DNA of 64,000 nt from a virus (taxonomy: Duplodnaviria > Caudoviricetes): the IMG/VR virus record IMGVR_UViG_3300013383_000020, positions 32,001-96,000 of that record; one strand, written 5' to 3'. Shown here piece after piece: positions 8,474 to 63,470 of this stretch. Numbering within the stretch: the stretch's first letter is position 1; each line of letters begins with the position of its first letter. A model generated the notes under the pieces. The model was given only the letters and a program-made list of their open reading frames with translations, was not told where the DNA came from and did no database searches. Position numbers and translations under genes: made by a program.

Positions 8474-8695
8474 ATGAGTAAAAGCAATTATGAAAAATAT
8501 GCTGAAATAAAACAGCAGGAATTATTACATAAAGAAAGGAGTCTGCAACAGGCAATTAGTTGTCTACGGGATAGACGAAAGTTCGCATCATTACAATGTA
8601 TTGACAGTGCAATAGATTTTGTTGCCGACTTATACGATTTATCTATTGATGAAGTGAAACGAGCAATGGATGGAGAAGAATATTGGTGTATATAA
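8474..8695 (+). CDS. hypothetical protein
   Basis: GGAGG SD before ATG 8474. Confidence 0.7.
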   Translation: MSKSNYEKYAEIKQQELLHKERSLQQAISCLRDRRKFASLQCIDSAIDFVADLYDLSIDEVKRAMDGEEYWCI

Positions 8696-8837
8696 AACTA
8701 AGATTTCTTGGGAAGAATGGAGGTTGATTTAATGTTAAATGCAAAGGACTCACAGATTAAACTTGAAAAATATTATGCAGATTGTGTAAAATTTTGGATA
8801 AGACAAAACGGAATTAATGAAAGAGAGGTTGATTAGT

Positions 8838-9419
8838 ATGATGAAATACGAAATAGAAGAACCAAAAGGATTTGGTAGTACATGGGTAAATGTAATAGGC
8901 AAAAATGCAAAACAGGAAACAATGGTAATTGAAATTGTGCATTGCGAAAATCCAGGTGGAAACAATTCACTCCCTTATCTGTGGCACAAAAAAGGCTGGA
9001 CAGATAAGGTAATGGAAACTTATATTGGTTGTCATACTTATGTACATGATTCAGAAAATGGCTGTTATGGTGGATACAATGTAACAGAAAAATTTGATGG
9101 AAAGCGAAATGTGATTAACTTTGATTGGCTACTTGAGGACACAGAGGAAAACAGAAAGAAAATTATTGAAGAATGTATTAGATTATTTGAATCTGCTACA
9201 AGTAAAAGTGCAACAGAAAAGAAACTTGAACATGTAATGGAAGTGGCAAAGGAGAGAGGTCTTGAAGTTGTATTTGAATTGCCTGAAGGTTGGAAAAAGA
9301 ATCCGCTTATGACAGATCCTTGGGGAGCTGTAACCATTGACAATGGAAAGCCAGTTTTCATTAAAGTTGGAGATAGGCATAAGAAAAATCCAGAGTATAA
9401 GAGAATGTTATTAATTTAG
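8838..9419 (+). CDS. hypothetical protein
   Basis: GAGG SD before ATG 8838; long ORF. Confidence 0.75.
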   Translation: MMKYEIEEPKGFGSTWVNVIGKNAKQETMVIEIVHCENPGGNNSLPYLWHKKGWTDKVMETYIGCHTYVHDSENGCYGGYNVTEKFDGKRNVINFDWLLEDTEENRKKIIEECIRLFESATSKSATEKKLEHVMEVAKERGLEVVFELPEGWKKNPLMTDPWGAVTIDNGKPVFIKVGDRHKKNPEYKRMLLI

Positions 9420-9427
9420 GAAGGAGC

Positions 9428-9958: not shown

Positions 9959-10277
9959 AAAAGGAACTACACCAAACGGAACAGATATTCAAATTGAAGA
10001 TTGGAGCGAAGACTATTCTTGTTATAACAAAAATGCAACTATTGGATTTTATCCAATGGCATTAGAAAGTATTTATAGAGAAGATCATCCAGATTAGACA
10101 CCATATCCAAAGAGAGGTGAAACATTCAGAGCTTCATTCGATTTTGAGACAGAAGCGGATGCATTAGAAGCATTTGTATTATTAGAAAATGGTTGTAAAT
10201 GTTTTATGGACTACATAGACCATTTTGCAACCAACGTTATACCAAAAGTAAATTTTATAAAAGCAATTGGCAATTGA
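9945..10277 (+). pseudogene. hypothetical protein interrupted by in-frame TAG
   Basis: GGAGG SD, ATG 9945, single TAG at 10095-10097; frame continues to TGA 10277. Confidence 0.7.
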
Positions 10278-10322
10278 AATTGTAATTTATAGTGAAATTT
10301 TAGAAAGGTAATGGTGAATAGT

Positions 10323-10631
10323 ATGAAAAAAATTATTAACGGAAAGATGTATAACACAGAAACAGCAAAGGAAATTGCTACATGGAGTAATTCATATAAT
10401 TATGGTGATTTTAACTATTGCGAAGAAACACTTTACAAAAAGAAAACGGGTGAATATTTCCTGTATGGTGAAGGTGGAGCATTAAGTAAATATGCAAGAT
10501 CGTGTGGAAGTAACGGAAGTTGTGGCGGCACTGAATTTATTCCATTCAGCGAAAATGAAGCAAAGGAATGGATGGAAAACAATGCAGATGCAGATGATTA
10601 TATTGCAGAATTCGGAGAAGTTGAAGAATAA
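10323..10631 (+). CDS. hypothetical acidic phage protein
   Basis: MKKIINGKMYNTETAKEIA...; acidic C-terminus. Confidence 0.75.
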   Translation: MKKIINGKMYNTETAKEIATWSNSYNYGDFNYCEETLYKKKTGEYFLYGEGGALSKYARSCGSNGSCGGTEFIPFSENEAKEWMENNADADDYIAEFGEVEE

Positions 10632-10909: not shown

Positions 10910-11013
10910 AACCAAAGGAAAGAACTGTTTCAACGGAGAATATTATAACGGATAGAAAAGCAGAGATTATATATCCCTGCTTTTTCTATAAATACATAGT
11001 AGGAGGTGTCAGT

Positions 11014-11370: not shown

Positions 11371-11376
11371 TAAATT

Positions 11377-11970: not shown

Positions 11971-12257
11971 TGCAAATGAGAGAATTTATAGTCAGATGGA
12001 CAGCAGATGGATATTGCGTAGACTTTTACCATATGGTAGTTGCTGAGTCTTTAGATAAGGCAAAAGAATTATGGAATGAATATGTAAATACACATAAAGA
12101 TATTCAGTATTCTTGGAAGAAGGTAAGCAATGCAGTTAAATATCATCATGGTGGATATATTACATGGAAAGATAATGGAGAAAGTAACAAGGCTGAAGGT
12201 TGTTACGAAATGGAAAATGTGAATACCTATGAAGGTAGCGATCATTTAAGAGATTAA
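11970..12257 (+). CDS. hypothetical protein
   Basis: GGAGG SD; TAATG coupling. Confidence 0.7.
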   Translation: MQMREFIVRWTADGYCVDFYHMVVAESLDKAKELWNEYVNTHKDIQYSWKKVSNAVKYHHGGYITWKDNGESNKAEGCYEMENVNTYEGSDHLRD

Positions 12258-12330
12258 AGGTAGTCCAAAATCGAAAGAGATTGGATAGAGGTTGAGGTTC
12301 ACAGCCAGTTACTTGTGGTAGCGAATGGAA
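12255..12330 (+). ncRNA. conserved three-hairpin element, copy 1
   Basis: Near-identical to 17047-17123; covarying third copy at 31411-31494. Confidence 0.55.
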
Positions 12331-12378
12331 ATAAAAAGCCAATGAATCGATGATTTACTGTGGAAAGGAGTAATAGAA

Positions 12379-12852: not shown

Positions 12853-13002
12853 CATAATATAAAGAAACGGAAAATTCAAAGAAATATTCGCAAAAGTCAA
12901 CTTTGCGAATATTTCTTTGAAATAATATTACACGTGTCAAGAGAATAAATAAGAGGTTGATTAATTCGATCTCTTATTTTGATGGAAAGGAGATTGATAA
13001 AA

Positions 13003-14736: not shown

Positions 14737-14778
14737 AATGGAAACATAAGAAGTAATAGTTTCTTTGGAAGATTCAAT

Positions 14779-14820
14779 CAATATATTGTGGTTGTGAGAT
14801 GCATAAAACACAATATATAG
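14779..14820. promoter_or_regulatory. tandem NrdR-box-like pair
   Basis: CAATATATTG 14779 and CAATATATAG 14811, 32 bp apart. Confidence 0.6.
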
Positions 14821-17046: not shown

Positions 17047-17123
17047 TAAAGGTAATCCAAAATCGAAAGAGATTGGATAGAGGTTGGGGGTTTACAGCCA
17101 GTTACTTATGGTAGCAAATGGAA
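17047..17123 (+). ncRNA. conserved three-hairpin element, copy 2
   Basis: Near-identical to 12255-12330. Confidence 0.55.
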
Positions 17124-17236
17124 AATAATTTCCAATGAATCCAAGTTTTCTTATTAAAGCAGAGAAAATATAGAAATAAGTATTAGAAGCAGAAATCAAC
17201 TGCTTCTTTTTTATTACAGAAAATGAGGTGATGAAT

Positions 17237-17527
17237 ATGTGCAGATATAAAAATGGAAATCCAAAAAGAACTTCTCAGTTTTTGTGCTTACATTGTATGA
17301 AAATAAACCAATTATCAGGAATACAGAGAGGAGGACACCAAAGGGAGAAATATCATATAAAAGATCTTTTATGTATTAATAAGGAATGCAAGAATCTTCC
17401 TTATACAAAAAATTTAGAGATCAGATGGTGTGATACATACGAAGAAGTGTATGAAAAGGCAATACAAATAAGAAGGCATTATTATTCAGACAAAATAGAG
17501 AATAATACAAATAGAAAGGTGTGTTGA
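17237..17527 (+). CDS. zinc-finger protein
   Basis: CxxC...QR...H.KDL.C motif. Confidence 0.65.
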   Translation: MCRYKNGNPKRTSQFLCLHCMKINQLSGIQRGGHQREKYHIKDLLCINKECKNLPYTKNLEIRWCDTYEEVYEKAIQIRRHYYSDKIENNTNRKVC

Positions 17528-17532
17528 TAGAT

Positions 17533-17805
17533 ATGGAATATGAAATAACTAATATTGGAAGCTCAGAAATTAAAGATATTCACCATATTGGAATTAATTA
17601 TGATGGCAACTATTACAGTGTAATTTTTGGCAAATATATTAATGGTGGATTCTTTAGTATTCCAAACTGGAATTGTGGTGGTGAACTGGCGAACTTTAGC
17701 GATGTGTTTTGGAATACCGAATCTATTTATAGAGCGTTAAAGAGAAAGAAAACAGCAAGAGTAATAGCACAAGCTATAGCTGACTATATGAAGGAGTGTG
17801 ATTGA
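17533..17805 (+). CDS. hypothetical protein
   Basis: ORF with SD. Confidence 0.7.
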   Translation: MEYEITNIGSSEIKDIHHIGINYDGNYYSVIFGKYINGGFFSIPNWNCGGELANFSDVFWNTESIYRALKRKKTARVIAQAIADYMKECD

Positions 17806-17806
17806 T

Positions 17807-18838
17807 ATGGCACAGACAAGAGACTACGCAACAAAGAAAAAGGGTAAAACTAAGGGTTATCCATTTTGGAATATGGAAGATATTAAGGGAATGATTGATT
17901 ATTTTCGGAACAATCAATTATGGAATGATTATTTGAAATTTATGTTGTTATTTTTATTTGGGAGAAGAGTAGGAGACACATTAGATATGGTGTGGTCTGA
18001 TATTTTTTATCCAAATGGAACAATAAAGGATGAGATTAGAACAATTGAGGAACAAAAGACTGGGAAATACAATATCATATATATTTCACCATATGCAAAG
18101 CAGGTTATTAAAGAATATCTACAGATAACAGGCATCAATCCATTATATGATTTAAATGACTATATTTTTCCATATGAGTTGAAGTATGAATGGAGAAAAA
18201 TGGAGAACGATGATTTTTTTCATGAAACAGAATCTACAAATTATTCTGATAATGAAGCATTAGAAATGATTAACAGGTTTGTAGAGTTATACAACAAAGA
18301 TTATAGCGAAGATAGAATTAAAAAGATTTTAAATGAGTGGAGAAAGCATCAAAAAGAATTTAAAACTTTAGGAGAATATATATATAAAGAAGTAATTTTT
18401 AAAGATATTTCAAAATGGCAAATTGGAGCATTTGATAAAATTTTTAAAAAAGCAGTGGAATTTAACAAAATTCAATACAAGGTGACGATTCACAGTATAA
18501 GGCGTTCCTTTGGATATTATAGTAAAGTAATTCATCCACATGATATGTTATGTTTGGAAACTTTACAGAATATTTTTGGACACAGTGACACACAAACAAC
18601 TATGCATTATATTGGTTTATCTGAAGAAAGAGAAAGAATGTATTATACCGATATTGGAGATTTTTTAAATGGTGTATCAAATGGGAATTATGATCTAAAG
18701 AAGAATAGCCCCGTAATAACAATAAAAGAACAAGACTTAAGAAAGATTTTATTAAAAGCCATTAAACTAAACTCTAATGATGCAGCGATATCTTTAAATC
18801 AAATATTAGACGAAATTGATGAGGTGAAATTAGAATGA
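17807..18838 (+). CDS. tyrosine recombinase (integrase family)
   Basis: Full catalytic set: GRRVGD (R), EQKTGK (K), HSIRR (H-x-x-R), FGHS (H), TMHYIG (Y). Confidence 0.9.
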   Translation: MAQTRDYATKKKGKTKGYPFWNMEDIKGMIDYFRNNQLWNDYLKFMLLFLFGRRVGDTLDMVWSDIFYPNGTIKDEIRTIEEQKTGKYNIIYISPYAKQVIKEYLQITGINPLYDLNDYIFPYELKYEWRKMENDDFFHETESTNYSDNEALEMINRFVELYNKDYSEDRIKKILNEWRKHQKEFKTLGEYIYKEVIFKDISKWQIGAFDKIFKKAVEFNKIQYKVTIHSIRRSFGYYSKVIHPHDMLCLETLQNIFGHSDTQTTMHYIGLSEERERMYYTDIGDFLNGVSNGNYDLKKNSPVITIKEQDLRKILLKAIKLNSNDAAISLNQILDEIDEVKLE

Positions 18839-18883
18839 AACAAATGAGATGAGAGTAATATAAATATGTAAGGACGACACAGA

Positions 18884-19096
18884 TTATTTCGTGTCGTCCT
18901 TGGTATCAAAAATGAGTATATCATTAGGGGTGCAATTTAAAACATGACATAGACTTTCTAGGGTGTCAAAATAAATTCGTTCAACATTGCCCGTATATAA
19001 ATTACAAGCTGCTTGATAACCGATTTTTAATTCCTTCGACAATTGATTTCGATTCATACCTTTTGAATCAACCAAAGGTTTGATATTTAATTTCAT
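18884..19096 (-). CDS. XRE/Cro-C1 HTH transcriptional regulator
   Basis: MNRNQLSKELKIGYQAACNL...TLESLCHVLNCTPNDIL; divergent from mazF-like gene. Confidence 0.85.
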   Translation of the reverse strand: MKLNIKPLVDSKGMNRNQLSKELKIGYQAACNLYTGNVERIYFDTLESLCHVLNCTPNDILIFDTKDDTK

Positions 19097-19258
19097 GCGT
19101 ATACCTCCTTAACAATATGTAGTTTAGCATATAATCTTAACAAAATAAATATGTTTTCAACATTATATGCTTGACAATATAATGTTAATAGTGTATAGTA
19201 TGAAATATCAAAGGTAATCCACGAGTACATAAATACAAAAGAGAGGAGGAACGTACAT

Positions 19259-19642
19259 ATGGATTTACAGAGATACGATGTTATAAAAGCAAAAATCAAA
19301 TATCAAGGCGAAGGATCAGTCCAGACTAAAGAACGTCCATATGTTATTGTGTCAAATCCGATAGGAATTAAACATGCAACTATAATCACAGTGATGCCTT
19401 TGACTTCTAAAATAAAGAAAATGAATATGCCTGTTCATGGTTGCATTAATGCAGACGATGATAATGGTTTAACAGAGTATTCTATGGTGCTCGGAGAACA
19501 AATTATAACAATATCCAAGGACGAAGTTATTGAAAGACTTGGAAATGTTACTGATCGCAATGAACGAAAACTTATAGATAAGGTTTGTTTCAATGGTTTG
19601 TTTTTTGGAACTGAATATAGATTAGAGGGGGCGAGAGTGTAA
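19259..19642 (+). CDS. PemK/MazF family endoribonuclease
   Basis: GSVQTKERPYVIVSN...VMPLTSK...SMVLGEQIITISK; TTGACA promoter at 19171. Confidence 0.85.
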   Translation: MDLQRYDVIKAKIKYQGEGSVQTKERPYVIVSNPIGIKHATIITVMPLTSKIKKMNMPVHGCINADDDNGLTEYSMVLGEQIITISKDEVIERLGNVTDRNERKLIDKVCFNGLFFGTEYRLEGARV

Positions 19643-19896
19643 TGTATGTGAGTAAAGAAAAGGCGAAACAAATAATTGATGAAACTCCTGGTATGATATG
19701 GGTTGATTCTTTTAATGGAATAACTTTTATTCATACAAGACCAAGACAAATAACTGTTGATGAGGGAAAGAGAATAATTAATAAGGCAAGCACAGTTGAT
19801 TATTTCGATAATGATTTTTTTGGCTTGCTTTCATTAGAGGGAGTACAGGAATATATGATTCATAACATAAAGTTCCCTCACCATATGTCCGAATAA
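19642..19896 (+). CDS. hypothetical protein
   Basis: Translationally coupled to mazF-like gene. Confidence 0.65.
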   Translation: MYVSKEKAKQIIDETPGMIWVDSFNGITFIHTRPRQITVDEGKRIINKASTVDYFDNDFFGLLSLEGVQEYMIHNIKFPHHMSE

Positions 19897-19937
19897 TTGG
19901 ACATATCGTGAGGTATAATAAAAGAAACTAGCAAAAC

Positions 19938-19989
19938 AGAACGGGTGTTCGGTGTTTCTGTTGACAAATACAACCATATGTTCTATTAT
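19938..19989 (+). promoter_or_regulatory. SOS box plus sigmaA promoter
   Basis: AGAACGGGTGTTCG 19938-19951; TTGACA 19961 -17- TATTAT. Confidence 0.65.
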
Positions 19990-20208
19990 AATTATTGTCA
20001 GCAACAAAATAGAGCCAAGCGATTCAAACGCTGCGCCAACAGCTTTCTACTTGACTCTACTAAAACCAAACAATACAACGAATAATCGTTGTAAAGAAGC
20101 AGAAAATCCGCTTGGTACTATTTTACATAGATTTTCTTTAAAAGTCAAGTTTCTGAGCATTTCTGCTATTAAGTCCATTTTTGCAATTAAATATGGAGAA
20201 TAAAGTAT

Positions 20209-20280
20209 TGGGCATTTGCCAAGTGGTAAGGCGCTGAATTTTGATTTCAGTATTCGTAGGTTCGAATCCTACATGCTCAG
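20209..20280 (+). tRNA. tRNA-Gln(TTG)
   Basis: TGGGCAT/ATGCTCA acceptor, anticodon loop TTTTGAT, GGTTCGAATCC T-arm. Confidence 0.85.
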
Positions 20281-20548
20281 TTTGTTTTGGCAAAACTTCA
20301 TAAGGTGGAATCTTATGAATGAGCAATAAGGAGATGTAAAACAACTTTTATGAATATTCCCATCGCCTTATTTCATTGATAATTGCGCGCAAATCAATGA
20401 CAGAACATAATTTGTGATAGGTATCTTTAGCATAAGACTTAAAAGCGGAGTGTAACAGCACACAAATAAACAAAACAGGGAGTCGCGCCATCACATTTTT
20501 TACATTTTACATTTTACTTTTACGTCTTCGAGGCTTACTCGGAGACCC

Positions 20549-20622
20549 GGATCATTAGTTCAGTTGGTTAGAACGCTCGGCTCATAACCGAGAAGTCACA
20601 GGTTCGAGTCCTGTATGATCCA
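20549..20622 (+). tRNA. tRNA with CAT anticodon (Ile2-like or elongator Met)
   Basis: GGATCAT/ATGATCC acceptor, CTCGG-CTCATAA-CCGAG, GGTTCGAGTCC. Confidence 0.85.
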
Positions 20623-20653
20623 TTACAAAACAATAAGGAAGGAGATGTTTTTA

Positions 20654-21262
20654 TTGGCAGAGTATGTCATAACAGACGGAACTCGTTGGATTATGAGAGA
20701 TCGGAACAAGAAATATGTTCCAACTTCTTGTGAAGCATTAGCTGATAAGTTTTCAAATAAATCAGCAAATAGTGTTTACAACAATCAATTACCAAAGGCA
20801 TTGAAATCGGTCTTTCATATCGAGAAAGTAGATGACACACCAGATGGTATAAAGCAGATCACACAGAAGGGAGTGGAAGAGAATACAGAAAAAGTTATGA
20901 TTTCTGAGAATATTCAGAAATGGCTTAATAAAATTTCTGATCTGAATGGATTGGTAGCAGATGCCCTACATAGAAAGAGTGAGCTTACAAATCAGCTTAG
21001 TTCGGTGGACAAAGAGATATGCGATATCTTGCATTATATTGAGTTCTGCAATTTAAATGCAGCACAAGGATATAAAGCGTACAAAATGTTAAAGGAGAGG
21101 AGAATAAAAAGAAGAAGCATTAAAAATGAATTACAGGTTTTGGACATTATCTTAAGCAAAAAGATTTCCGAAACGGTGACAGATGAGATCCAAAAAGCTA
21201 TTGCTGGAATGGATCGACGTACATATGAACCACGAGTTTTGAATGAGTTATTCGATTTTTAA
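20654..21262 (+). CDS. hypothetical coiled-coil phage protein
   Basis: AGGAG SD; ...DILHYIEF..LNAAQGYK.YK...R..RR..KNE. Confidence 0.75.
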   Translation: MAEYVITDGTRWIMRDRNKKYVPTSCEALADKFSNKSANSVYNNQLPKALKSVFHIEKVDDTPDGIKQITQKGVEENTEKVMISENIQKWLNKISDLNGLVADALHRKSELTNQLSSVDKEICDILHYIEFCNLNAAQGYKAYKMLKERRIKRRSIKNELQVLDIILSKKISETVTDEIQKAIAGMDRRTYEPRVLNELFDF

Positions 21263-21278
21263 TGGAGGTATTTGAATT

Positions 21279-21455
21279 ATGGTGTTATGCAATAATTGTC
21301 GTATTGTTATGATTCCTATAATGTCATTTTCACAAGATGGAAATAAGAAATATTGTAGATGTCCTCGTTGTTATGCTGAGACAAAGAAGCAGCGTTTGGA
21401 TAAGAATGAATTATCTTTCGGAGAATATTTACATAAGGCAGTTAAACGCAAATAA
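21279..21455 (+). CDS. small zinc-ribbon protein
   Basis: GGAGG SD; MVLCNNC...CRCPRC. Confidence 0.6.
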   Translation: MVLCNNCRIVMIPIMSFSQDGNKKYCRCPRCYAETKKQRLDKNELSFGEYLHKAVKRK

Positions 21456-21476
21456 AAGATGAGGCAGGTGTATTGA

Positions 21477-23675
21477 ATGAAAAAAGAGATATTACGTGAA
21501 AAATTGCAAAATCTTTCATCTGAGCAATTAGGATTGATCAATACATATTGTGAAAACGATATGTCAAAGTTAAAAAAGATCAGTTATAACGCATTTTTTA
21601 GGTACGGCATTCCATCATATGAACATGATGAACTGTACGATGATGCGATGAACGTTTTGATGGAGAGTGTCGTGACATTTGATTCATCTCAAGGTGCAAA
21701 TTTTAATACCTATCTGACTAACAATATTAAAAAGTCAACTATAGATTGGTATAGGGACAATTATCAACGAGGTAAAAGAAGAAATTTATTAACTGATAAA
21801 AAGGGAAGAATATTAAAATTTGATGATGACGGAAATATAACAGATGAAAAAAATGGAAAACCAGTTATTATTCCAAATAGCTCATTTGATGCACCTGCTG
21901 ACGATGATAATAGTTTGGCTGACAAACTTGCGTCAGATTTTGACATTGAACACGAAAGTGAATTTGATTTTGAAATAGATCAAAAAGTGGAAGACTTTTT
22001 GAATACATTACCTAAAGTACAAAAAAATATTTTACTTTTATTAATGCAGCATGAAAGTAAAACAGATATTAAACGGCAGTTAGGTATCTCTGATAGAGAA
22101 TATAATAGTGCGATTAAGTCAATTAATATGAATAAAGGACTTTCCGCATTCTCAAAGAACAAAAATGATGGAAATTATGAAGTGGAGGTAAAGGATATGG
22201 CAGACAGAATTATTGAAATTGGTGAATCAGAAAACTACAGAATGGACAAGTATAGCATGTATGCATTATTACAGGATAAGAAAAACGGAGATATGAACTG
22301 TAATTACATTTTGCAGCGTGAACCTTTTCAGTGGAGCACAGAAGAGGCTAATAGATATTTTTGCCGTATTCTTAGTAATCTTCCAATTCCTGAGATTATC
22401 ATTTGTGAGCAGAAGAAGAAAGGATTGACAATTTCTCATTTGATTGATGGATTACAAAGACTTTCCTATGCTGAAGCTTTCAAAGAAAATCGTATCAAAA
22501 TTGGTTCAGCAGGAGCAGAAAGACATTTAATCCAGTATAGAGATTATGTTTTAGACGAAAATGGTAATCGTATATTGGATGAAGACGGACTTCCTGAATA
22601 TGAAATGAAAGTGTTCGATGTGATTGGAAAGTATTATAAGGATTTACCAGATGAACTGAAAAAGAGATTCAATAATTTTAATATTAATGTAACCAAGTTC
22701 TTTGATTGTACAGACGAACAGATTGCAGATCATATTCGTGATTATAATAATCACGCAAGTATGAATAAGGAACAGAGTGGCTTGCTTAATGTATCTGCTG
22801 ACATTGCCGTACAGATTAAGAAGATTTCACAGAAAAATTCTTTCTTCAAGAATTGTGGTAAGTTTACAGGTAATAATTCAATCAAGGGAAAATGTGAAAG
22901 AGTTGTTGTTGAATCACTTATGTTGTTGTTTTTCCGTGAATCATGGAGAGCAAACCTGGATTCAATTTATAAGTTTGTTAATGAGAATGCATCAGAACAG
23001 CAGTTTATGAAGCTTAATTCACAGTTCAACAGACTGGAATTAGCATTAGGCGATAATAATAAAAAATTATCAGAGGTATTATTTACTCCAACTACGATGC
23101 CAATGTGGATTACAGTGTTTGATAAATTTACTACATATAATATGGAAGATTCTCGTTTTGTTGACTTTTTAAATGCTTACAATACAGAACTCAAGGATAA
23201 AGATATCAATGGTGTATCAATGGCAGACTTTAAAGATCAGCAAACAAAGAAAAAGACAACTATTACAGGTAAGATTGATTTACTTGTACAACTTATGAAC
23301 GAATTTTTACATATCGAACAGACAACGGAGAATAAGGAAGTAGAAGATAGCACCACAGTAGCTTCTGAAAAGGATTTCGTACATAGTGTAATTGAGGCAG
23401 ATATCACAGACGAAGATATGGAGGATTATAAGGATTATATTGAAGATACAGTAAGAATGTCGTCACCATTATATCATCAGGCATATCCAGCTTTGTTAGC
23501 AATGGCTGCATATGTGTATAGCTGTGATAAAGATGATGAATTTAATCAGTTTATTGATGGATATGCTAATAATACATATGAGTTTACAACAGATCAGAAT
23601 GTTAATTACAATCAGATGAAACATGCCTTTCAGGAGTGGCTCGACAAAAATAAATCAAAGGAGGTAGCTGCATAA
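21477..23675 (+). CDS. sigma-70-like N-terminal domain fused to DUF262 (ParB-like) domain
   Basis: DELYDDA...ESV.TFD...ANFNTYL (sigma region 2) plus HTH; C-terminal LQR..FQW...PIPEI...LIDGLQRL (DUF262). Confidence 0.7.
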   Translation: MKKEILREKLQNLSSEQLGLINTYCENDMSKLKKISYNAFFRYGIPSYEHDELYDDAMNVLMESVVTFDSSQGANFNTYLTNNIKKSTIDWYRDNYQRGKRRNLLTDKKGRILKFDDDGNITDEKNGKPVIIPNSSFDAPADDDNSLADKLASDFDIEHESEFDFEIDQKVEDFLNTLPKVQKNILLLLMQHESKTDIKRQLGISDREYNSAIKSINMNKGLSAFSKNKNDGNYEVEVKDMADRIIEIGESENYRMDKYSMYALLQDKKNGDMNCNYILQREPFQWSTEEANRYFCRILSNLPIPEIIICEQKKKGLTISHLIDGLQRLSYAEAFKENRIKIGSAGAERHLIQYRDYVLDENGNRILDEDGLPEYEMKVFDVIGKYYKDLPDELKKRFNNFNINVTKFFDCTDEQIADHIRDYNNHASMNKEQSGLLNVSADIAVQIKKISQKNSFFKNCGKFTGNNSIKGKCERVVVESLMLLFFRESWRANLDSIYKFVNENASEQQFMKLNSQFNRLELALGDNNKKLSEVLFTPTTMPMWITVFDKFTTYNMEDSRFVDFLNAYNTELKDKDINGVSMADFKDQQTKKKTTITGKIDLLVQLMNEFLHIEQTTENKEVEDSTTVASEKDFVHSVIEADITDEDMEDYKDYIEDTVRMSSPLYHQAYPALLAMAAYVYSCDKDDEFNQFIDGYANNTYEFTTDQNVNYNQMKHAFQEWLDKNKSKEVAA

Positions 23676-24538
23676 TGCCGGATATCAGCATGTGCTTTGG
23701 CAAGGATTGTGACAGAAGGGAGCATTGTTATCGATACAAGGCGAAACCCAATCAGGTTCAAACATATAGTGATTTGGAACAGGATTGTAAGATGCACCAT
23801 TATCGTAACCAATGATTGAAGAAAATCGAGTCCATGTAGATAATATAAGTAATATGTTGGCGAGGTGTTGAACATAGATGACAAGATTAATTCCATATCA
23901 AGGTTATGTTGTTCCACAGGAATTCGTCATGACATGTAATAAGTGTTACGAACGTAATATATATCTAGTTCAAGATACAATTATGGATACAGAAACAAGC
24001 AAAAGATATATAAAATGTAACAATTGCAATTCTAAGATATATGTAAATTTACGAAGTATATGTATTTGTTAATAAAAATAACAGGAATTATATTTCGTGA
24101 AATTATCTATCTTCTATACATAGTCAGTTCTGACATTCTAATATCTTGTATCTTATAACTCGATATATAATTCCTGATTATATAGATAGCGTATAAATGA
24201 AAGGCGGTGAGAATATGGGTATTGGATGTAGACCAATTGGTAAGTTTAAAAGTGAGATGGTCAAGATCGAAAATCAGATTTCCAAGGAAAAGGCAGCACA
24301 TGTTGTAAAGAAGAACAATAAGAATAAGAAGGGAGAATAATATTTATGGAGAAGAAAACAGTTACATATCAGTTGCACACAAGAAAGTTGGATCGTGAGG
24401 TCGCACATAACAAGATGAAGAAGGCTGGTGTGATTCAGCTAAATAAGGACAAAGGAAAGGGTAGTTTCTTCGCTAATCATTGGCGTGAGTATGTGTAAGA
24501 ATTGTGATGAACTTATTGTATTGTAAGTTCATCTGTAA

Positions 24539-24715: not shown

Positions 24716-25093
24716 ATGAGAACAATAGACAACAAATTTGAAATTGGAGAAGAATGTTATACCTATGCAAGAGAGAATTTAGCCATTATTTGTCCTGTAT
24801 GTAAAGGAACTAAGAAGATTCTCTACAACAGATACGAAATTCCATGCAAACAGTGTAATGTATCTGGAAAGATTATAGGTAAACAGACTGTAGTTGCACC
24901 ACATAAGGTTAAGATTAGAAGAATTATTGCTAGTATTTGGAACGATGTGACGACAATTAAATACAAAGTTGATTCTGTTGGAGAATATATCAATGTGAGA
25001 AACAGAGGAGAAACTTCTTTATTTAAGACATTAGAAGAGTGTGAACAAAAATGTAAAGAAATTAATCAGGGCGAGAGTAGTGCTGCATTTTAG
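24716..25093 (+). CDS. hypothetical protein with DnaJ-type CxxCxGxG zinc motif
   Basis: CPVCKGT...CKQCNVSG. Confidence 0.7.
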   Translation: MRTIDNKFEIGEECYTYARENLAIICPVCKGTKKILYNRYEIPCKQCNVSGKIIGKQTVVAPHKVKIRRIIASIWNDVTTIKYKVDSVGEYINVRNRGETSLFKTLEECEQKCKEINQGESSAAF

Positions 25094-25131
25094 TAGGAAA
25101 ATTCTCTTTCTTTAGATTGTGAGGTGAAAAT

Positions 25132-25407
25132 ATGACACAAGAAGAATTAGTAAATAGATTGAGAAAAGTTGGTATAAACGGACAATGGGTTAATCCAGAC
25201 AAATATGGTTTCAGTAGAACTTATGAGTTTGTAATAAATGAGCAAATCATTCAAATTGAATGGTACACTAATTATTCTACTATTATGATTGGCAATGCAC
25301 ATTTTTGGTTCGATAGTATAGTATTACATAGTGGTTATCCTATGCAGGGAGAATGGATTGAATTTTCTTTTAGAGGGGAACATCCATTACATATAAAAGT
25401 TAAGTAA
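25132..25407 (+). CDS. hypothetical protein
   Basis: GAGGTG SD; bounded by repeat sites at 25092 and 25406. Confidence 0.7.
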   Translation: MTQEELVNRLRKVGINGQWVNPDKYGFSRTYEFVINEQIIQIEWYTNYSTIMIGNAHFWFDSIVLHSGYPMQGEWIEFSFRGEHPLHIKVK

Positions 25408-25448
25408 CAAGAATGTTCGATTTCTTGGGAAAATGAAAGGAGAAAATT

Positions 25449-27289: not shown

Positions 27290-27651
27290 GGTGAAAAAGT
27301 GAAAATATTTTTAGCAATTTTGATCCTAATTTCAGCATTGAATATAAATCTGACTTTAGAAAAGTTAAATGGTACAAAAAAGAGATATGATTTGCATTGT
27401 ATCGTGTCATTATTAGCATTTATTTTGTTTTTAATTTTCTTTTAAGTAGAGAATAATCTAATATAGAAGTATTTCTATTCAAGGCTGATCAGCCAAATTT
27501 TCCAAAAAAGTAACAAGAAATATTTTTTTCATTCGATTAGGCAGACGTGTTTATTTTCGAGTGATTTTATAACAAAAATTATTAAAATGAAAGGATTAAA
27601 CAGTAACTCCTAGGTAAAAATGATTGCGCAATCTCTGTAGATTAAAGGATT

Positions 27652-28752
27652 TTGACAGAGAATAAAGAAAAAAATAATTATTGTGAGCTTAATGGAAGAC
27701 CATTACGTTTACTAATAGGTGGTTCACCTTGTACATATTGGTCGATTGCTCAGAAGAACAATAGAGAAACAGAAGCAGAAGGGTTAGGATGGGAGCTATT
27801 TAAAAACTATTTAATAGCAAAGGATAAATTCAAACCTGATTTATTTCTATATGAGAATAATAAATCAGCTTCATCGGCTATAAAAGAACAGATTGTACAT
27901 GAGCTTGGATATCCATTACAAATTATTGACAGTGCATTAGTATCAGCTCAAAAGAGATTAAGATTCTATGTAAAGAACTGGACGTGTCCATTGCCAGAAG
28001 ATAGAGAAATTTTATTGAAAGATATTCTTGAATTATCGGAAAGTGTAGTTGAAAGAGAAAAGGCTTATTGTTTATGTACAGATCACGTTGGAACAACGAG
28101 AGATTATTTTAAGAAACATCAGAGTCAGATTGTATTTGAACCAGTAAGAATCGGAGATATTGGAAGTAATTCACAAGCTCATAGAGTTTATAGTTGTTAT
28201 GGGAAGTCTGTTAATTTAGTTGCTAATGGCGGTGGTCAAGGTGCAAAAACTGGCTTATATTTTGTACCACTTCCAGAAGAATTAGAGAAATTAGTGTGTG
28301 ATAAGGGGAAAATTTATAAGGTTACAAATAAAACTATCCCTACAAAATTTGGTGAATTCCAAGTAAATTTACCAGATGGATTATACATAATTAGAAAACT
28401 CACTGTGACAGAAGCAGCAAGATTACAAACTATGCCAGATAATTATATGAAGTCTGTATCTGCACAACAAGGATATAAAGGGCTTGGGAATGGTTGGACA
28501 GCAGAAGTAATTATTCATCAGTTAAAATATGGACTCAAAGATATCCCTAAAGATTATCCAATTGAAGTTTTATCTATGTACGATGGAATTGGAACTGGAA
28601 GATATTGTTTGGATAAAATGGGATTTACAAATATTACATATAAAGCATATGAGATTGATAAGTATGCTATGACAGTTGCCAATGATAATTATCCAGATAT
28701 TATTCAGTGTGGTGACGCATTCCAAGTCAGAAACGATGATTGGGAATATTAA
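27652..28752 (+). CDS. circularly permuted C5-cytosine DNA methyltransferase
   Basis: Motif order IV (GGSPC), VI (YENN), VIII (QKRLR), TRD, IX (RLQT), X (GNGW), then I (SMYDGIG), II (YEID), III. Confidence 0.85.
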   Translation: MTENKEKNNYCELNGRPLRLLIGGSPCTYWSIAQKNNRETEAEGLGWELFKNYLIAKDKFKPDLFLYENNKSASSAIKEQIVHELGYPLQIIDSALVSAQKRLRFYVKNWTCPLPEDREILLKDILELSESVVEREKAYCLCTDHVGTTRDYFKKHQSQIVFEPVRIGDIGSNSQAHRVYSCYGKSVNLVANGGGQGAKTGLYFVPLPEELEKLVCDKGKIYKVTNKTIPTKFGEFQVNLPDGLYIIRKLTVTEAARLQTMPDNYMKSVSAQQGYKGLGNGWTAEVIIHQLKYGLKDIPKDYPIEVLSMYDGIGTGRYCLDKMGFTNITYKAYEIDKYAMTVANDNYPDIIQCGDAFQVRNDDWEY

Positions 28753-28838: not shown

Positions 28839-28892
28839 TATAAAAATCAAGTCCGAAGGAAAGCGGAATTTCTTGTGGCGAAAGGAGAGAAT

Positions 28893-29963: not shown

Positions 29964-30170
29964 ATGAATAAAGAAAAACAAATTGAGGTATTAGAAGATC
30001 TGAAATCTTATGTAAATGAGGAATGGGATGCTTATGAATATGCAGACGATATAAAGGATGCTAATACAGCATTAGATGCAGCAATTGCTTTGATCAAATC
30101 ATCTAATGTTGCAGGTACATTAACTATAAATGATGAAAGTTATATAGTCCTCAAAGCACAAGAATCATAG
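29964..30170 (+). CDS. hypothetical protein
   Basis: ORF with SD. Confidence 0.6.
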   Translation: MNKEKQIEVLEDLKSYVNEEWDAYEYADDIKDANTALDAAIALIKSSNVAGTLTINDESYIVLKAQES

Positions 30171-30420
30171 ATTTCTTCCGCTTTAACGGAGAATATATAA
30201 ATGAGGTAAAACTAACTGAAAGCCTGAGATGGTGAAAAGGTAAAGGTGAAGGCTGGAAGTAACAAATCAGTCAACCGATGAGCGTATAGGCTGAAATTCA
30301 TTAGAGAATATAACGCCTTGGAACAAACCTCAGTCATGGCATGTAATGATGAGGGATAAGGATGCTCTCATAGAGTACAGAAATGAATGTACTCTTAATT
30401 TAAACAAGGAGGTAAACAAC

Positions 30421-31494: not shown

Positions 31495-31638
31495 TTTTAT
31501 AAAAGCCGAAGAATCCGAAGTTTCCTTCGGAATTTTCAAGAGCAAGTCGCTCAAAAATTATAATAAATAAGAGAATATCTAAAAGAAAGGATAATTAGTA
31601 GCTGGCTTTAAAGGTTGCAACCGCTTTGGTACTAATTA

Positions 31639-36399: not shown

Positions 36400-36591
36400 A
36401 TGAGATCAGAGATAAAAAGACGACAGTTTTCTGAAAATCATCAATCTTGGTTCTCCCATGATTATGCTTGCTGGGCAAATAATCACAATGGTTGGAGAAA
36501 GATGAAAAAGAAGAATCGTAGATTATTTAAAAAGAAGTATCGAAGAGAAGTTGAGAAGGATATTAATAATGAATTGAATGATATGCAATAA
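36400..36591 (+). CDS. small basic protein
   Basis: ORF with SD. Confidence 0.55.
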   Translation: MRSEIKRRQFSENHQSWFSHDYACWANNHNGWRKMKKKNRRLFKKKYRREVEKDINNELNDMQ

Positions 36592-36632
36592 TAGTAAATT
36601 CAGGATTCATTGGCTTTAAGAAAGGAGAACAT

Positions 36633-36923: not shown

Positions 36924-36983
36924 CTTCACAGGAAAGCAACATATCTTTGGATTTTGAGAGAATAATACATTGGAGGTGAAAAC

Positions 36984-37211
36984 GTGAAGTTAATTGGTGA
37001 CGAAGCATTTGAAGAATATCAGAAATTAAAAGATAAGAATACTCCAAAGAAAGTAAAAACGCAAAAATATGAACTATTAGTTAAATCAGGATGGGAGTAT
37101 GCATGTCCTGCTTGTGGATGTGCTGTTGGTGCAAATAAATATGACACAGAATATACTGACGAATATCCATATTGTGACAATTGCGGTCAGGCATTAGATT
37201 GGAAAAAATAA
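36984..37211 (+). CDS. zinc-ribbon protein
   Basis: CPACG...YCDNCGQALDW; bounded by sites 36927 and 37210. Confidence 0.75.
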   Translation: MKLIGDEAFEEYQKLKDKNTPKKVKTQKYELLVKSGWEYACPACGCAVGANKYDTEYTDEYPYCDNCGQALDWKK

Positions 37212-37215
37212 CAAG

Positions 37216-37526
37216 AATCCAATCTTTCAAGCGAATTTTCAATCTTTACTCGATAGAATTTATGTTCATTTCCTTGCTTATCAAATCCCTTAATAATGGA
37301 TTTATCCAGCCAAAAGTAGCCCTCTTTCAGATCTTCTAATGGCTGTTTGGTTGTATCTCTCAAGAATGTAAGATACTCATTGTAAATTGGGTTCACTCAT
37401 ATACCTGAGTGTTATGTACATAACCTTTTACCTAGGATTATCCTTACCTTTCTTTGATTTTATGGCATTTGCAACTACCATTTATGTTGTTATTTGTTCA
37501 AAAATTTTCCAATGAAAGATTGGATT
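37216..37526. mobile_element. inverted DNA segment carrying leader and 5' end of the PAPS-reductase-like gene (OFF orientation)
   Basis: 14-bp inverted repeats AATCCAATCTTTCA (37216-37229) / TGAAAGATTGGATT (37513-37526); minus-strand ORF ...ENSLERLD joins plus-strand ERLDCTKLK. Confidence 0.85.
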
Positions 37527-39770: not shown

Positions 39771-39875
39771 TAGAGAATAAGTAATTAGAGGTCACGAAAG
39801 CCTTGAAAAACAAGGCTTTTAGAATCTCAAAAGTCGAAGGAAATTTTTCTTTCTTGTGAAGATTGGAGGTGTGTT

Positions 39876-42551: not shown

Positions 42552-43631
42552 ATGATAAAGGTAGGTTCTGAACGAGAAATCAAATTTGATAAAGAATTAA
42601 GAAACAAAAGACATATGGCTAAAACATGTGGAACAAAAGATTACAATATTAATAATTACGATTTAAAAGAGTTTGAGTTTGCAACTGGCAATAAAAAAGT
42701 ATATGGGAATGTAAATTTCAATATTTTCATTGATGATTATTGCAACGCTGACTGTAAATTTTGTGTGGCTCAGTTAAGATATGAACATAAAAATGCTATG
42801 TATAACAAAGGTCATATAAAAGATGTAGATAAATATTTGAGTAGGCTTGATGAAGTTTTAAGAATCGCAAAAGCTTTAGATACATCGGTTAGTATTACAG
42901 GTGGAGAACCAACAATGAGTCCAATCTTAACAGAAGTATTAAAAATGGTTGATTCATATGGTTTTAGAAAACGAACCATTACAACTAATGGAAGTGGTTT
43001 ATTTCAAATCCAAGACAATGATACGATTCTGAATAATCTCATTAAATACAATTGGGATTATTTGAATATTAGTAGAGCAAGTTATGATGATGAACTTAAT
43101 CGTAAAATTATGAGATATGTATCAGATAAAGAATATTGTACTATGGATATGTTAAATGAAATTCTAAATATTTCTAATAAAACTAATCTAAAACATCGTA
43201 TCAGTTGTCTCTTACTCAAAGAGAGTGTAAATTCCGTTGAAGAAATGAAAAAGTATATTGATTTTTATAGTAAACTCGGTGTTAATAATTTCATTTTTAG
43301 AGAATTAATGGATTACGATAAAAGTGCGGTCAACACAGAAAAAATGAAATACTGCGATGAGAATAAGATTAAGTTATATGATATTTGGAATGATTTTGAT
43401 AAATATCCTGAGTTTGAACCATACTTAAATATTCTTGGATATTACTATTATGTGGAGATTTATAAATATTTAGGAATGACAGTAGCAAGTGAAACAGCAG
43501 ACTTGAATATCCAGAATCGTGAGGTTGCAGCACATGATGATGTTGTTTATGAGATGGTATTTCATAATAATGGTAACTTATGTGCAAGTTGGATTGATAA
43601 CGAAAGAATTTTAGACAAGTACATAGACTAG
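42552..43631 (+). CDS. radical SAM protein 3
   Basis: CNADCKFC, TGGEP, TTNGS, NISR. Confidence 0.9.
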   Translation: MIKVGSEREIKFDKELRNKRHMAKTCGTKDYNINNYDLKEFEFATGNKKVYGNVNFNIFIDDYCNADCKFCVAQLRYEHKNAMYNKGHIKDVDKYLSRLDEVLRIAKALDTSVSITGGEPTMSPILTEVLKMVDSYGFRKRTITTNGSGLFQIQDNDTILNNLIKYNWDYLNISRASYDDELNRKIMRYVSDKEYCTMDMLNEILNISNKTNLKHRISCLLLKESVNSVEEMKKYIDFYSKLGVNNFIFRELMDYDKSAVNTEKMKYCDENKIKLYDIWNDFDKYPEFEPYLNILGYYYYVEIYKYLGMTVASETADLNIQNREVAAHDDVVYEMVFHNNGNLCASWIDNERILDKYID

Positions 43632-43677
43632 AAAAGATTCGTTTCTTGTGAAAATTTGAAAGGAGATAAAAAGAATA

Positions 43678-44011: not shown

Positions 44012-44194
44012 ATGACGGTCAAGGAGTTAAAAGAATTATTAGAAAACTTACCAGAAGATATACTTGTCTGCTGCAATGGCATAGGTGGCAAATACCTTAT
44101 AACAAACAATGGTATTGTTAGTGTTGATTCAGAAGATGAAGACTTCTTTGTAAGTGATGATGTTCTTGTGTTGTATACGGAAGGACAGCAATAA
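44012..44194 (+). CDS. small acidic protein
   Basis: MTVKELKELLENLPED... pattern. Confidence 0.65.
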   Translation: MTVKELKELLENLPEDILVCCNGIGGKYLITNNGIVSVDSEDEDFFVSDDVLVLYTEGQQ

Positions 44195-44224
44195 ATATCG
44201 GTTTCCTTGGGAGGTGAAAATAAT

Positions 44225-47497: not shown

Positions 47498-47744
47498 TAT
47501 GAAAATTAAGACCGAAGGAAACTGACATTTCTTGGTGCGATTTTAAAGGAGAATTGTAGAATGAGTGATATTTGTAAAGACAGAGAAGCTTTAAGACCTA
47601 AATATGAACAGTTTATTCAGACTGAGAGAGGTAAAGAGTGGAAACATTTTTGGCAGAGTCAAACAGGTTCAGAGAGAAGTGGAGATTTTGGAGATTATCT
47701 TTATGACTTTTATCCAGAAATGTTGCAGTAAGGAGAAAAAATAA

Positions 47745-48687: not shown

Positions 48688-48933
48688 TGAGTGAGGAATT
48701 CACTGTTTCATGCGAAATTCGTAAATCTAATCTTGAACAATTCGTTCAAAAATCCCTAACAAATAAGAGAATAAATAAATGGTGGAAGAACAGCATACCA
48801 TTGAGCTTGTGCGCTCATAAACCACTGTTGAAGATAGATTTTTACATAAATTTATTTTCTGTGTTCCAGTCGCAAGACTGTTCAAATATAGTTATCAAAA
48901 AATTTTACATATTATAAGGAGGACATTTTTTAA

Positions 48934-60800: not shown

Positions 60801-61103
60801 ACACCATTTGAGGATGTGCCTGATGGTGAGAAGTGTACTTTAGTTGGAATTATAGCAAAGGTTCAAAAGAAGAAAGATAAGAATGGTAAGCAATTCGCAT
60901 ATATAAACATCTATTCAAGTTTTGGACTTGTTGAAGGAATTGTATGGCATAGTCAATTAAAGGAATATGAAGATTTAGTTAAAAAAGGGCAGCAAGTAGC
61001 AATTCTTTGTAAGAAAGATAGCGAAGAAAAAGTAATTGTAGAAAAATTAAAGCCATATAGCAAATGGCTTGAATATGTGAGAAAGAAAGGAGTGTCAGTC
61101 TAA
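57831..61103 (+). CDS. dnaE: DNA polymerase III alpha subunit
   Basis: PHP domain (HNH.FYSLLDG), GRGSAAGS, FERFLNPER..LPDIDTD, KFDLLG, FNKSH. Confidence 0.95.
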   Translation: MAYSSLHNHDFYSLLDGYGSPKEMLDRAKEIGLKAYATTNHGNAYAHIYFDLIKKDYPDIKMIYGCELYECEDITVKDKDNKYFHLICLVRNEQGRKDLNKVITKSNFEGFYFKPRCTVEDIKPYAENFVISSACLASKLARESDFEKCIEYINEYKEAFPHFFLEMQSHSHQDQCLYNQKILELSKRTNTPFIITTDSHAPKKEDLYYQDKLIQIGRKSSNNDKNAIENSEVYEGCYMQSEDEIHEIMDSQIGYENVCLGLENTNKVADLIENVDMPFQKPQLPTFPLPDGYRDNNEFLWHLVRQGWKDRGYDKLSEDEQQVRRTRLNYEMGIIHSMGFDGYFLFVWDFIKAAEKLGIEVGKGRGSAAGSLVCYCCHITDIDPIKYGLIFERFLNPERVGLPDIDTDVGNRDAIIDYLVEKYGEERVCQIINYSYITPTVAITDVGKILGFPYNQMQKLSQKFTFDKWDDCMKANPNLLTDNPQYADLFDIAKHLSGRVKTVSIHAGGVGIVDTTINDYMPMKIGTKGEHVIQVDKHYVEDIGIVKFDLLGVATLNLVKEIKDDLHLNPWDYDINNPAFENDRPTYELLASGKTNGVFQVESAGMKDLLIRLKPKLEQLDFEVISVILALYRPDSMGALDEYVEMATGGSRPPSIHPDMDEILKDTNYCMIYQEQLLDIVKKFGGRTYGQADLFRKAIGKKLPELVKQESEKLRGEISANGYSKELADKIANELSSKGGYLFNKSHSFSYAVLCFETAWFKAHYPTYFFKALFNQNKDKAGAINKYILDARYFNVDIMPPNINHSGMNFTVDKDKVLFGLSAIGGIGESLSKQIIEERENNGIYKSFDDLIQRLSLGKASVIALIKSGAIPCKNKREKLISYLKSEYQPLKFSEVQSLPTYKKLEEDWNIDLKKYVIPSSGKRIVYDKEALLAEYNRLKKIQFEENQRVRFQKYINDNKKYLEDEQFWEFQTLQVFINDNPFDAAYTFLTPFEDVPDGEKCTLVGIIAKVQKKKDKNGKQFAYINIYSSFGLVEGIVWHSQLKEYEDLVKKGQQVAILCKKDSEEKVIVEKLKPYSKWLEYVRKKGVSV

Positions 61104-61104
61104 A

Positions 61105-63387
61105 TTGGATGAAGATGAGATTTATAAATTTACAGCAACTATAACCTTTGAACAATGGTACAACGAGGATTCAACGTGGGGCGTATTTGGATTTTCAACA
61201 AAAGATGATATTCCGTTCTTTACAAAACCTACAAAAACATTCGATCCGTTTGGCGATAATAATTCTGCAAATGATATTGATGATAAAAAGATGAGTAAGT
61301 TGGCAGGAAAGATGCAACATTTAGTTGTGGGTGGAGAATATGTAGTTAAGGCGAAATACAAAAAGGATAAAAAATATGGCGATCAATATGCACCGATTGC
61401 CATATACGCCATTATTCCACAAAGCAGAGAGACACAGTTATTATTTTTGAAGTCAATGATTCCTGAATGGATGGCTGATAATTTAATAAATGCATACCCA
61501 AATGTGGTAAATGATGTAGCGAATGGAACACTAAAAACTATTGATTACAGTCTTGTAAAGGGTGTTAGAGAAATTACTTGGAATAAAATCAAGGAAAAAA
61601 TCATCAATAACTATCTCATTTCTGACATTATTATGATGTTAAAACCACTTGGTGTTACTTATGCGATGATTAAAAAACTTCTATCCGATGAACCAAATCC
61701 AGTTTTATTAAAACAAGAAATTGAAAAAAATCCCTGGGTTTTAACTCGTGTGGAAGGTTTGGGATTCAGACGTGTCGATGACCTTGCCTTAAAATTAAAA
61801 CCTGAATTGATTGACTCTACACAAAGACTTGTGGCTTTTATCCAATACTATTTCAAAGACTTAGGAGAAAGTAAGGGTCATACATGGTGTTCTGAGAAGA
61901 TTTTAAGGGCAGCAATAAGCAATAATATATACGAGTGTTGCAATAAGGTTGATTGGCTATTAGAAAATAATGACTTTCTTCATATTGATAATGGTCGAAT
62001 TGGTCTGAAATATTATTACGATATTGAGATGCAGATTTATCATTTAATTCTGAATAAATCTAAAATTGAAACAACAATCAATATTTCTGATGAAGCGATT
62101 GATAAAGCAATTAAACATGCGGAAGAAGAACAAGGATTTGATTATGTGGTAGAACAGTTAGACACGATTCATAAGAGTTTACATAGAACTGTTAGTCTAA
62201 TAACTGGAAAAGCAGGAACTGGTAAAACGTCAATAATGCGAGCAATTGTTAAGGCTTATATGGAGAATAATTATATGATGACAGCTTCAGCACTTTCAGC
62301 AATGGCAGCTCAAAGAATTACAGAAGCAACAGAATTTCCTGCAATGACTATTCATAGAACACTTGGATGCCAAGGATTAAACGATTTTACATACAACAAG
62401 GACAACCATCTAATTACAGATGTTGCATTTCTCGATGAGGGAAGTATGGTTAATGCCAGTTTGTTTTTACATTGGCTTGAAGCAATCGGAGATAATACAA
62501 GAATTATCATTTCAGGCGATCATAAGCAGTTACCACCTATCGGATTTGGTAATGTGTTCTCAGATTTGATTGAAATATTTGATGACTCAGTTGTGAGCAA
62601 GTTAGTAAAACCTATGAGACAAGCAGAAAAATCAGGAATTCTTGTTGATGCAAATAAGATTCGTGAGAATATAAATCCTATATCTGAAAAGTTACAGCCA
62701 CGAATTATTCATGGTGAGTTACAAGATATGTATTATATGTTCCGCACAAATCGACAGTCGTTATTCAATATTGCTGTTAAGACATTTATTAAATCTGTTG
62801 AATCAGATGGAATCGACAATGTGGTTATTGCAGTACCTCGTAGAAAAGATTGTTTAAATAGCACCAATGAAATTAACAAGGTTATTCAGAATGAGTTACT
62901 TGGTGATGTTTTAGAAAGCATTGAAGGTTTTGATACCATTTTTAAACTTGGTGCGAAAGTCATGCAAACAGTTAATGATTATGACAAAAATGTATTTAAT
63001 GGTGAGATTGGCTATGTGACAAAAATCAGTGAAAGATATGATGGTAAGAAAAAAGAAGAATATTGTGAAGTTACTTACACTGATATTTTTGGCAAAGACA
63101 AAATTATTGAATACACAAAGAAAGAATTAGCTGCTTTGGATCTTGCTTATGCCATGACGGTACATAAATTACAGGGTGCTGGTCGAAAGACTGTAATCGG
63201 CATTATTGACAATACACATCATCAGCTTCTTGATAACTGTATGCTTTATACATTACTTACGAGAGCAAAGAAGAGATGTTTGCTATTAGCTGAACCAGAA
63301 GCATTTTTACAGTGTATTAGGACAAGTCATAACAATAGAAACACTTGGATGATGTTAGAAACAGAGAATAATACAGTAGAAGAGTAA
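61105..63387 (+). CDS. recD2: RecD2-like SF1 helicase
   Basis: GKAGTGKT, DEGSM, GDHKQLPPIG, RQA, YAMTVHKLQG, YTLLTRAK. Confidence 0.9.
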   Translation: MDEDEIYKFTATITFEQWYNEDSTWGVFGFSTKDDIPFFTKPTKTFDPFGDNNSANDIDDKKMSKLAGKMQHLVVGGEYVVKAKYKKDKKYGDQYAPIAIYAIIPQSRETQLLFLKSMIPEWMADNLINAYPNVVNDVANGTLKTIDYSLVKGVREITWNKIKEKIINNYLISDIIMMLKPLGVTYAMIKKLLSDEPNPVLLKQEIEKNPWVLTRVEGLGFRRVDDLALKLKPELIDSTQRLVAFIQYYFKDLGESKGHTWCSEKILRAAISNNIYECCNKVDWLLENNDFLHIDNGRIGLKYYYDIEMQIYHLILNKSKIETTINISDEAIDKAIKHAEEEQGFDYVVEQLDTIHKSLHRTVSLITGKAGTGKTSIMRAIVKAYMENNYMMTASALSAMAAQRITEATEFPAMTIHRTLGCQGLNDFTYNKDNHLITDVAFLDEGSMVNASLFLHWLEAIGDNTRIIISGDHKQLPPIGFGNVFSDLIEIFDDSVVSKLVKPMRQAEKSGILVDANKIRENINPISEKLQPRIIHGELQDMYYMFRTNRQSLFNIAVKTFIKSVESDGIDNVVIAVPRRKDCLNSTNEINKVIQNELLGDVLESIEGFDTIFKLGAKVMQTVNDYDKNVFNGEIGYVTKISERYDGKKKEEYCEVTYTDIFGKDKIIEYTKKELAALDLAYAMTVHKLQGAGRKTVIGIIDNTHHQLLDNCMLYTLLTRAKKRCLLLAEPEAFLQCIRTSHNNRNTWMMLETENNTVEE

Positions 63388-63470
63388 TTTGGATTTCTGG
63401 AATGCCCATAAATAGGGTGTTTCAGAGACTTAAAAAGCCAATGAATGACGGATTTCATGCGGAGGATTTT

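Follow-up and report, generated by a model that had tools for sequence, protein, structure and literature searches.

Ordered dyad sites as probable recombinase addresses for gene cassette exchange in SPbeta-like phages

Introduction

How can a temperate phage exchange its genes for unrelated ones and still keep its gene order? Swaps of unrelated genes at gene boundaries with the order preserved are usually attributed to random illegitimate recombination plus selection. The question is raised by a stretch of 64,000 nucleotides (the window), positions 32001-96000 of the 108.5-kb viral contig IMGVR_UViG_3300013383_000020, a genome about 65% complete. The window belongs to a large SPbeta-like temperate gut phage of Lachnospiraceae and contains about 25 copies of a dyad site, formed by 9-bp arms flanking a 6-bp core (24 bp in total) and located between a stop codon and a ribosome-binding site. 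We propose, with a probability of roughly 0.85, that a tyrosine recombinase crosses over at these sites and that they function as positional addresses in a natural form of cassette exchange. The proposal is based on comparison between genomes, namely on the conservation of the addresses, the position of the crossover, the replaced contents and the finding of both inversion states. The relatives of this phage are temperate phages of 140-190 kb, several of them on record as proviruses, and the group follows the gene order of SPbeta; more distant prophages, mostly in Lachnospiraceae genomes, match it at 74-83% in a replication protein.

Architecture of the sites

An initial annotation had described a lox-like array with 8-bp cores, and every site that it listed was found in its place. 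The dyad is clearly enriched at a single spacing, since n=8 yields 15 copies of A.GAA-Nn-TTC.T and other spacings yield 1-7; for the full pattern the counts are 6 and 0. With a position weight matrix seeded from these same sites, 21 matches above 13 bits were obtained in the 108.5-kb genome versus 1.1 in shuffled sequences. The profile of 426 distinct sites in relatives consists of nearly symmetric 9-bp arms around six uninformative central columns. Because positions 9 and 16, the outer bases of the claimed 8-bp core, vary among orthologous sites, we assign them to the arms and restrict the conserved core to the inner 6 bp. Four sites (8432, 10271, 12859 and 27662, the third of them decayed) had been overlooked; all are family addresses in the correct order. 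The block at 17.2-24.7 kb, previously thought to be free of sites, contains a strong one (19.5 bits) at 24450. The replication core (48.9-63.4 kb) is indeed devoid of sites in the window, and that of three relatives holds one.

The statement that every core differs is true, but chance alone predicts as much for 25 hexamers; the evidential weight sits in the conservation of cores across genomes and not in their all being different. The location between stop codon and ribosome-binding site would also suit RNA hairpins working as processing or translational coupling signals. That the sites are such hairpins, or an AT-rich intergenic artefact, is extremely unlikely given that arm-arm complementarity exceeds shuffled values at none of the variable pairs, with no pairing covariation, and that the enrichment is specific to one spacing and the addresses are ordered.

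Cores as ordered addresses

A comparison of accessory arms among 12 genomes (that of the window plus 11 close relatives) yielded 50 recurrent cores, each found once per genome and in a fixed order. The pairwise order of cores was concordant in 12,096 cases and discordant in 17, all of which involve a single genome where two adjacent addresses have moved, and about 60% of the addresses are present in each genome. At loci around three anchor genes, recurring cores were likewise found in no more than one copy per locus, accompanied by up to 16 different left arms. These data bear out the earlier suggestion that cores serve as positional addresses and are kept at syntenic sites. More distant phages have a dyad of the same kind with different cores. 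In SPbeta, phi3T and Goe12 the dyad takes a variant form, likewise with 6-bp spacing (7-11 copies versus 0-2 at other spacings), and the cores shared by these phages are located where the flanks change.

Position of the crossover and contents of the slots

Homology between sites was called exclusively from the 50-bp flanks. In the pairs homologous on the left side only (n=976) the left arm was kept and the core was identical in 92.5%, with variable right-arm columns at 46, 38 and 41% versus a background of 36, 35 and 33%. Right-only pairs (n=464) gave the mirror image, with an identical core in 87.7% and left-arm columns at 49, 38, 47 and 42%. Where homology at a site is one-sided, identity therefore extends through the core and ends at its far edge. 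Core mismatches mostly fit either a deletion between nearby addresses, in which one core is kept, or a drift of 1 nt. Heterospecific cores had been expected to block self-deletion, and they do not do so fully, as genomes have lost slots through crossover at the core edge.

When both ends of a slot are shared (706 genome pairs), the contents are unrelated in 381 pairs (54%), partly related in 266 and the same in 59. Homologous cassettes were found in overlapping slots in 209 of 214 cases. The ends of homology blocks are about 8-fold enriched near sites, with 26 of 129 lying within 20 bp versus 2.4% for a uniform distribution.

A different explanation, along the lines proposed for T4 PeSL motifs and for linker sequences, does without a site-specific enzyme: the sites would be short stretches of boundary homology on which host homologous recombination or a phage single-strand-annealing protein acts. 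At the position of SPbeta yorF/yorG (Sak4-like), the replication core does contain genes resembling those of an SSB (48934) and an ATPase (50093), although the latter has no significant match to YorG. Crossovers in laboratory SPbeta/phi3T hybrids are mostly placed in long homologies (10.1101/2020.05.06.055103), and many breakpoints are without sites. However, the identity shared at the sites spans about 12-14 bp only, the variable arm positions are not homogenised, and annealing requires neither dyad symmetry nor a fixed 6-bp spacing. We thus regard boundary homology as unlikely to explain the sites, and consider that annealing or homologous routes probably act in addition to them.

Invertible segments

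The most direct sign of recombination at the sites is provided, as judged from assembled sequences, by two inversions. A single pair of matched cores had been reported as the endpoints of an inversion; there are two pairs matched as reverse complements, 27512/27662 and 37210/37509, and inversion is real in so far as opposite orientations are found among relatives. Segment 1 (27512-27685, core TATTTT at site 27512, sites 150 bp apart) is reversed in 4 distinct contexts, and segment 2 (37210-37532, core CCAATC at site 37210) in 2. In the inverted copies of both segments the outer arms remain fixed and the inner arms are swapped. Two other studies each contributed a run whose contigs show the opposite-strand joint 37230/37513.

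Each inversion flips the 5' end of a gene. Segment 1 contains the leader and the putative TTG start of a C5 methyltransferase (27652-28752, plus strand), whose first codons extend across site 27662 and whose motif I lies near the C-terminus, as in a circularly permuted enzyme; it is in the ON orientation here. Relatives fuse different bodies behind this methyltransferase address. Segment 2 contains the leader and the first ~58 codons of a gene with a PAPS-reductase domain on the minus strand and is in the OFF orientation here, the frame of the gene being continuous in one relative (G014).

Both segments have a common leader (27583-27655, plus strand, and 37426-37462, minus strand) in which a strong Shine-Dalgarno sequence is followed by a CCTAGG element and a hairpin ahead of the coding start; variants of this leader occur in distant relatives. 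Promoter scans around both segments remained at chance level; the shared leader is possibly involved in translational control or recoding. A copy of segment 1 was also located outside its usual slot, upstream of the 61105 homologue in locus L146 (G022). The PAPS-reductase-domain gene (38126-39306) is apparently split by an insertion with a GIY-YIG-like endonuclease (38331-39137), which is missing from one contig and is a probable intron. An Rfam search returned tRNAs as the sole matches, and none for this putative intron.

Candidate recombinases

Three tyrosine recombinases are usual in a genome of the family: the end integrase, one protein of the structural arm and one encoded centrally. The central gene of the window (17807-18838, plus strand) had been put forward as a candidate enzyme of the array. 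It occupies the position of SPbeta yopP/yopR, and its product matches neither YopR nor YopP significantly. All six catalytic residues are kept and invariant (R54, K84, H229, R232, H259 and Y268); the protein consists of a catalytic domain with an insertion and is devoid of a core-binding domain. According to a model of modest quality it has a tyrosine-recombinase fold, the top match being VchIntIA (E=0.013), level with XerA and XerH. Because 6 of the 12 genomes with the same addresses carry in this slot a recombinase without BLAST similarity to it, the 17807 protein is ruled out as the sole enzyme. Three other genes of this regulatory block (17228-23675), a Zn-ribbon-like gene, the 19259 gene and a 732-aa sigma/GmrSD-like gene, are kept, with identities of 29-90%, in 11/11 close relatives, among which the recombinase varies in type.

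The structural-arm recombinase (344 aa, G000:22032-23066) is encoded outside the window and shows intact catalytic motifs and a full architecture. Its identity of 93-100% in most of 61 loci proved to be a matter of ascertainment, as a close match exists in only 12 of 40 family genomes, and it was rejected as a conserved enzyme of the family. The slot holds at least three types in all, about 21-29% identical or undetectable by BLAST, one of which matches the corresponding SPbeta-group protein at 27%. Arm profiles are alike whichever central or structural-arm type is present; a link between arm position 9 and the central type, seen in 12 genomes, was not reproduced in a held-out set of 17 (Fisher p=1.0). 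Neither recombinase gene is adjoined by a type-specific site, and no type-specific operator motif was found. The compared regions contain no other conserved recombinase-like protein, with the structural arm partly covered and the genome about 65% complete. In the Staphylococcus phages SEP9 and 6ec, which have a homologue of one structural-slot type, no array was found in the 50 kb examined.

It thus appears from these sequences, and this is new, that neither single phage recombinase serves as a conserved enzyme across the family. Our tentative first choice is the structural-arm YomM-like recombinase, slightly favoured because all types of its family share one architecture; a host or other enzyme comes second as a possible candidate, and the central-slot protein is a doubtful one.

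The same central gene raises the possibility that the sites work purely as operators for a repressor of integrase fold, with cores conserved by descent. It is convergent with a small gene at the yopP/yopR position, and MrpR and SroF are integrase-fold repressors with dispersed sites, named SPBRE (PMC10516654; 10.1101/2025.11.27.690993). Nevertheless, SroF is a monomer that reads 24 of 26 bp and has lost its catalytic residues, a loss not seen in the 17807 protein, whereas the centre of the sites is free across addresses here. The site profile does not change with the protein occupying the central slot, precise inversions are left unexplained, and cores stay identical where similarity in the flanks and at variable arm positions has dropped to background. 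A purely operator function is therefore very unlikely; a secondary repressor role may exist alongside recombination.

Proposed mechanism

We infer a tyrosine-recombinase chemistry and an exchange between co-resident genomes. The enzyme would bind two nearly symmetric 9-bp arms around a 6-bp overlap, and a match of the overlap would be needed for both strand exchanges. A given overlap sequence would serve at one site per genome and be passed on as the positional address of that site. If related phage genomes share one cell, by superinfection of a lysogen or by co-infection, crossovers at two matched addresses would swap the intervening DNA without the need of homology, and gene content would in consequence turn over under an unchanged gene order. 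Mismatched cores would react rarely, with deletion of slots and one core left intact, and a core repeated in reverse would lead to inversion of the intervening segment as an ON/OFF gene switch. On balance, we favour the view that SPbeta-like phages, from those of gut Lachnospiraceae to SPbeta itself, possess a dedicated phage-encoded system with about 50 orthogonal 6-bp addresses, which would mediate both in-register, homology-free exchange and inversion switches.

Several observations weigh against this proposal. The counts of the comparisons are of pairs and not of independent events, and inversion states were compared between assemblies rather than inside one population. A breakpoint test at the level of junctions gave no significant difference between those with and without a site (p=0.14); site-less gene junctions break often too, and many breakpoints lie away from sites. 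Finally, genomes that agree in their addresses and arm profile hold several divergent types in both recombinase slots, so that no enzyme is tied to the array. The expectation that breakpoints in gene content fall at cores thus holds for one-sided homology, which ends there, yet the sites account for only part of the breakpoints, and other recombination routes probably act alongside them.

No description of an ordered address system in phages was found in the literature searched, most subscription papers being beyond reach. The two natural inversion switches, seen in both states by sequence comparison, also appear to be new. The proposal offers a specific and testable mechanism for one large phage group, for which SPbeta and phi3T in Bacillus subtilis provide a test bed. 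The slots defined by the sites are places in which to seek accessory functions, and the array points to a recombinase tolerating about 50 naturally orthogonal spacers, of use in multiplex cassette exchange.

Comparison with known systems

Inverted arms and a fixed-spacing overlap, as in Cre/Xer-type sites, are present in the array, and crossover is confined to an identical overlap, on comparative and not biochemical grounds. Cre itself has a 6-nt overlap inside an 8-bp spacer, which agrees with the 6-bp identity rule of the array. Like integron cassettes, the phage cassettes are promoter-poor small genes between recombination sites with a tyrosine recombinase nearby. Integrons use attC single-strand hairpins of variable stem and attI as a single entry point, and their cassettes are stacked or reshuffled; here, there is no attC-type hairpin (no arm covariation and a fixed length of 24 bp) and no single attI-like entry, and the cassettes keep their slot. 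Shufflons and invertons are represented by Rci/sfx, FimB/E and the invertible promoters of Bacteroides. The two site pairs resemble them as invertible gene switches but differ in being 2 pairs among ~25 sites, without an adjacent dedicated invertase and with the same type of site serving for exchange.

In engineered recombinase-mediated cassette exchange with heterospecific lox/FRT sites, mismatched spacers prevent self-recombination and direct the exchange (for loxP spacer rules, see PMC1479339). The phage array shares this logic, but is natural, comprises ~50 addresses, has shorter, degenerate arms, and has enzymes that are candidates only. The pdif modules of Acinetobacter Rep_3/OrfX plasmids likewise consist of genes flanked by tyrosine-recombinase sites whose spacers measure 6 bp; the spacers have to match, two crossovers replace single modules, and matched inverted pairs invert (PMC13141974). 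The same 6-bp identity rule is found in the phage, and module replacement between matched spacers appears to take place there too. In contrast, the XerC and XerD arms of pdif sites differ from each other, the sites alternate in orientation, and their spacers are reused within a plasmid (PMC13141974), whereas the phage sites have nearly symmetric arms and ~50 spacers, each used once, in an order fixed across the family. No C/D-type alternation or flanking by inverse sites was observed, only unique cores in one order and two inverted pairs. The arm profile is also unlike the pdif arms of Table 1 in PMC13141974. SPBRE with MrpR/SroF shares the SPbeta architecture, a dispersed intergenic motif and an integrase-fold protein in the central operon, but is the repressor site of a catalytically dead protein (PMC10516654), while the phage sites are predicted crossover points; SPbeta carries both SPBRE and the array-type motif.

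Sites along the window and neighbouring elements

The first sites along the window are TTCGCA (8432-8455, in 5/12 genomes), CTAAGA (8689-8712, weak), TTGTAA (10271-10294, 9/12 genomes), GAACTG (10913-10936), CGATGA (12339-12362), the decayed CGGAAA (12859-12882, 0.5 bits, with the core exact and the order as expected), TAATAG (14745-14768) and CCAAGT (17132-17155), after which the five family addresses next in order are missing from this genome. The site closing the regulatory block (24450-24473) has a core outside the shared address book, and is followed by ATTCTC (25092-25115) and GTTCGA (25406-25429, 10/12 genomes), the left arm of which overlaps the stop codon of gene 25132-25407. GCGGAA (28854-28877), CATAGA (30157-30180), CCGAAG (31506-31529), TTCAGG (36590-36613) and GCAACA (36927-36950) lie between the invertible segments, and TTTTTC (39835-39858), GATTCG (43627-43650), TATCGG (44187-44210) and CTGACA (47513-47536) beyond them. 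The replication core is directly preceded by TCACTG (48691-48714, 11/12 genomes) and directly followed by GACGGA (63438-63461). Three array-type sites lie ahead of the window in the structural arm, near tRNA genes (G000:C1 14289, 14510 and 18720).

Some sites are accompanied by other elements. A duplicated intergenic element of ~100 bp (12255-12356 and 17047-17149) is found immediately upstream of sites 12339 and 17132. Palindromes that we take to be similar to NrdR boxes occur at 14810, 28796/28828 and 47455/47487, the latter two as tandem pairs, 32 bp apart, immediately upstream of sites 28854 and 47513.

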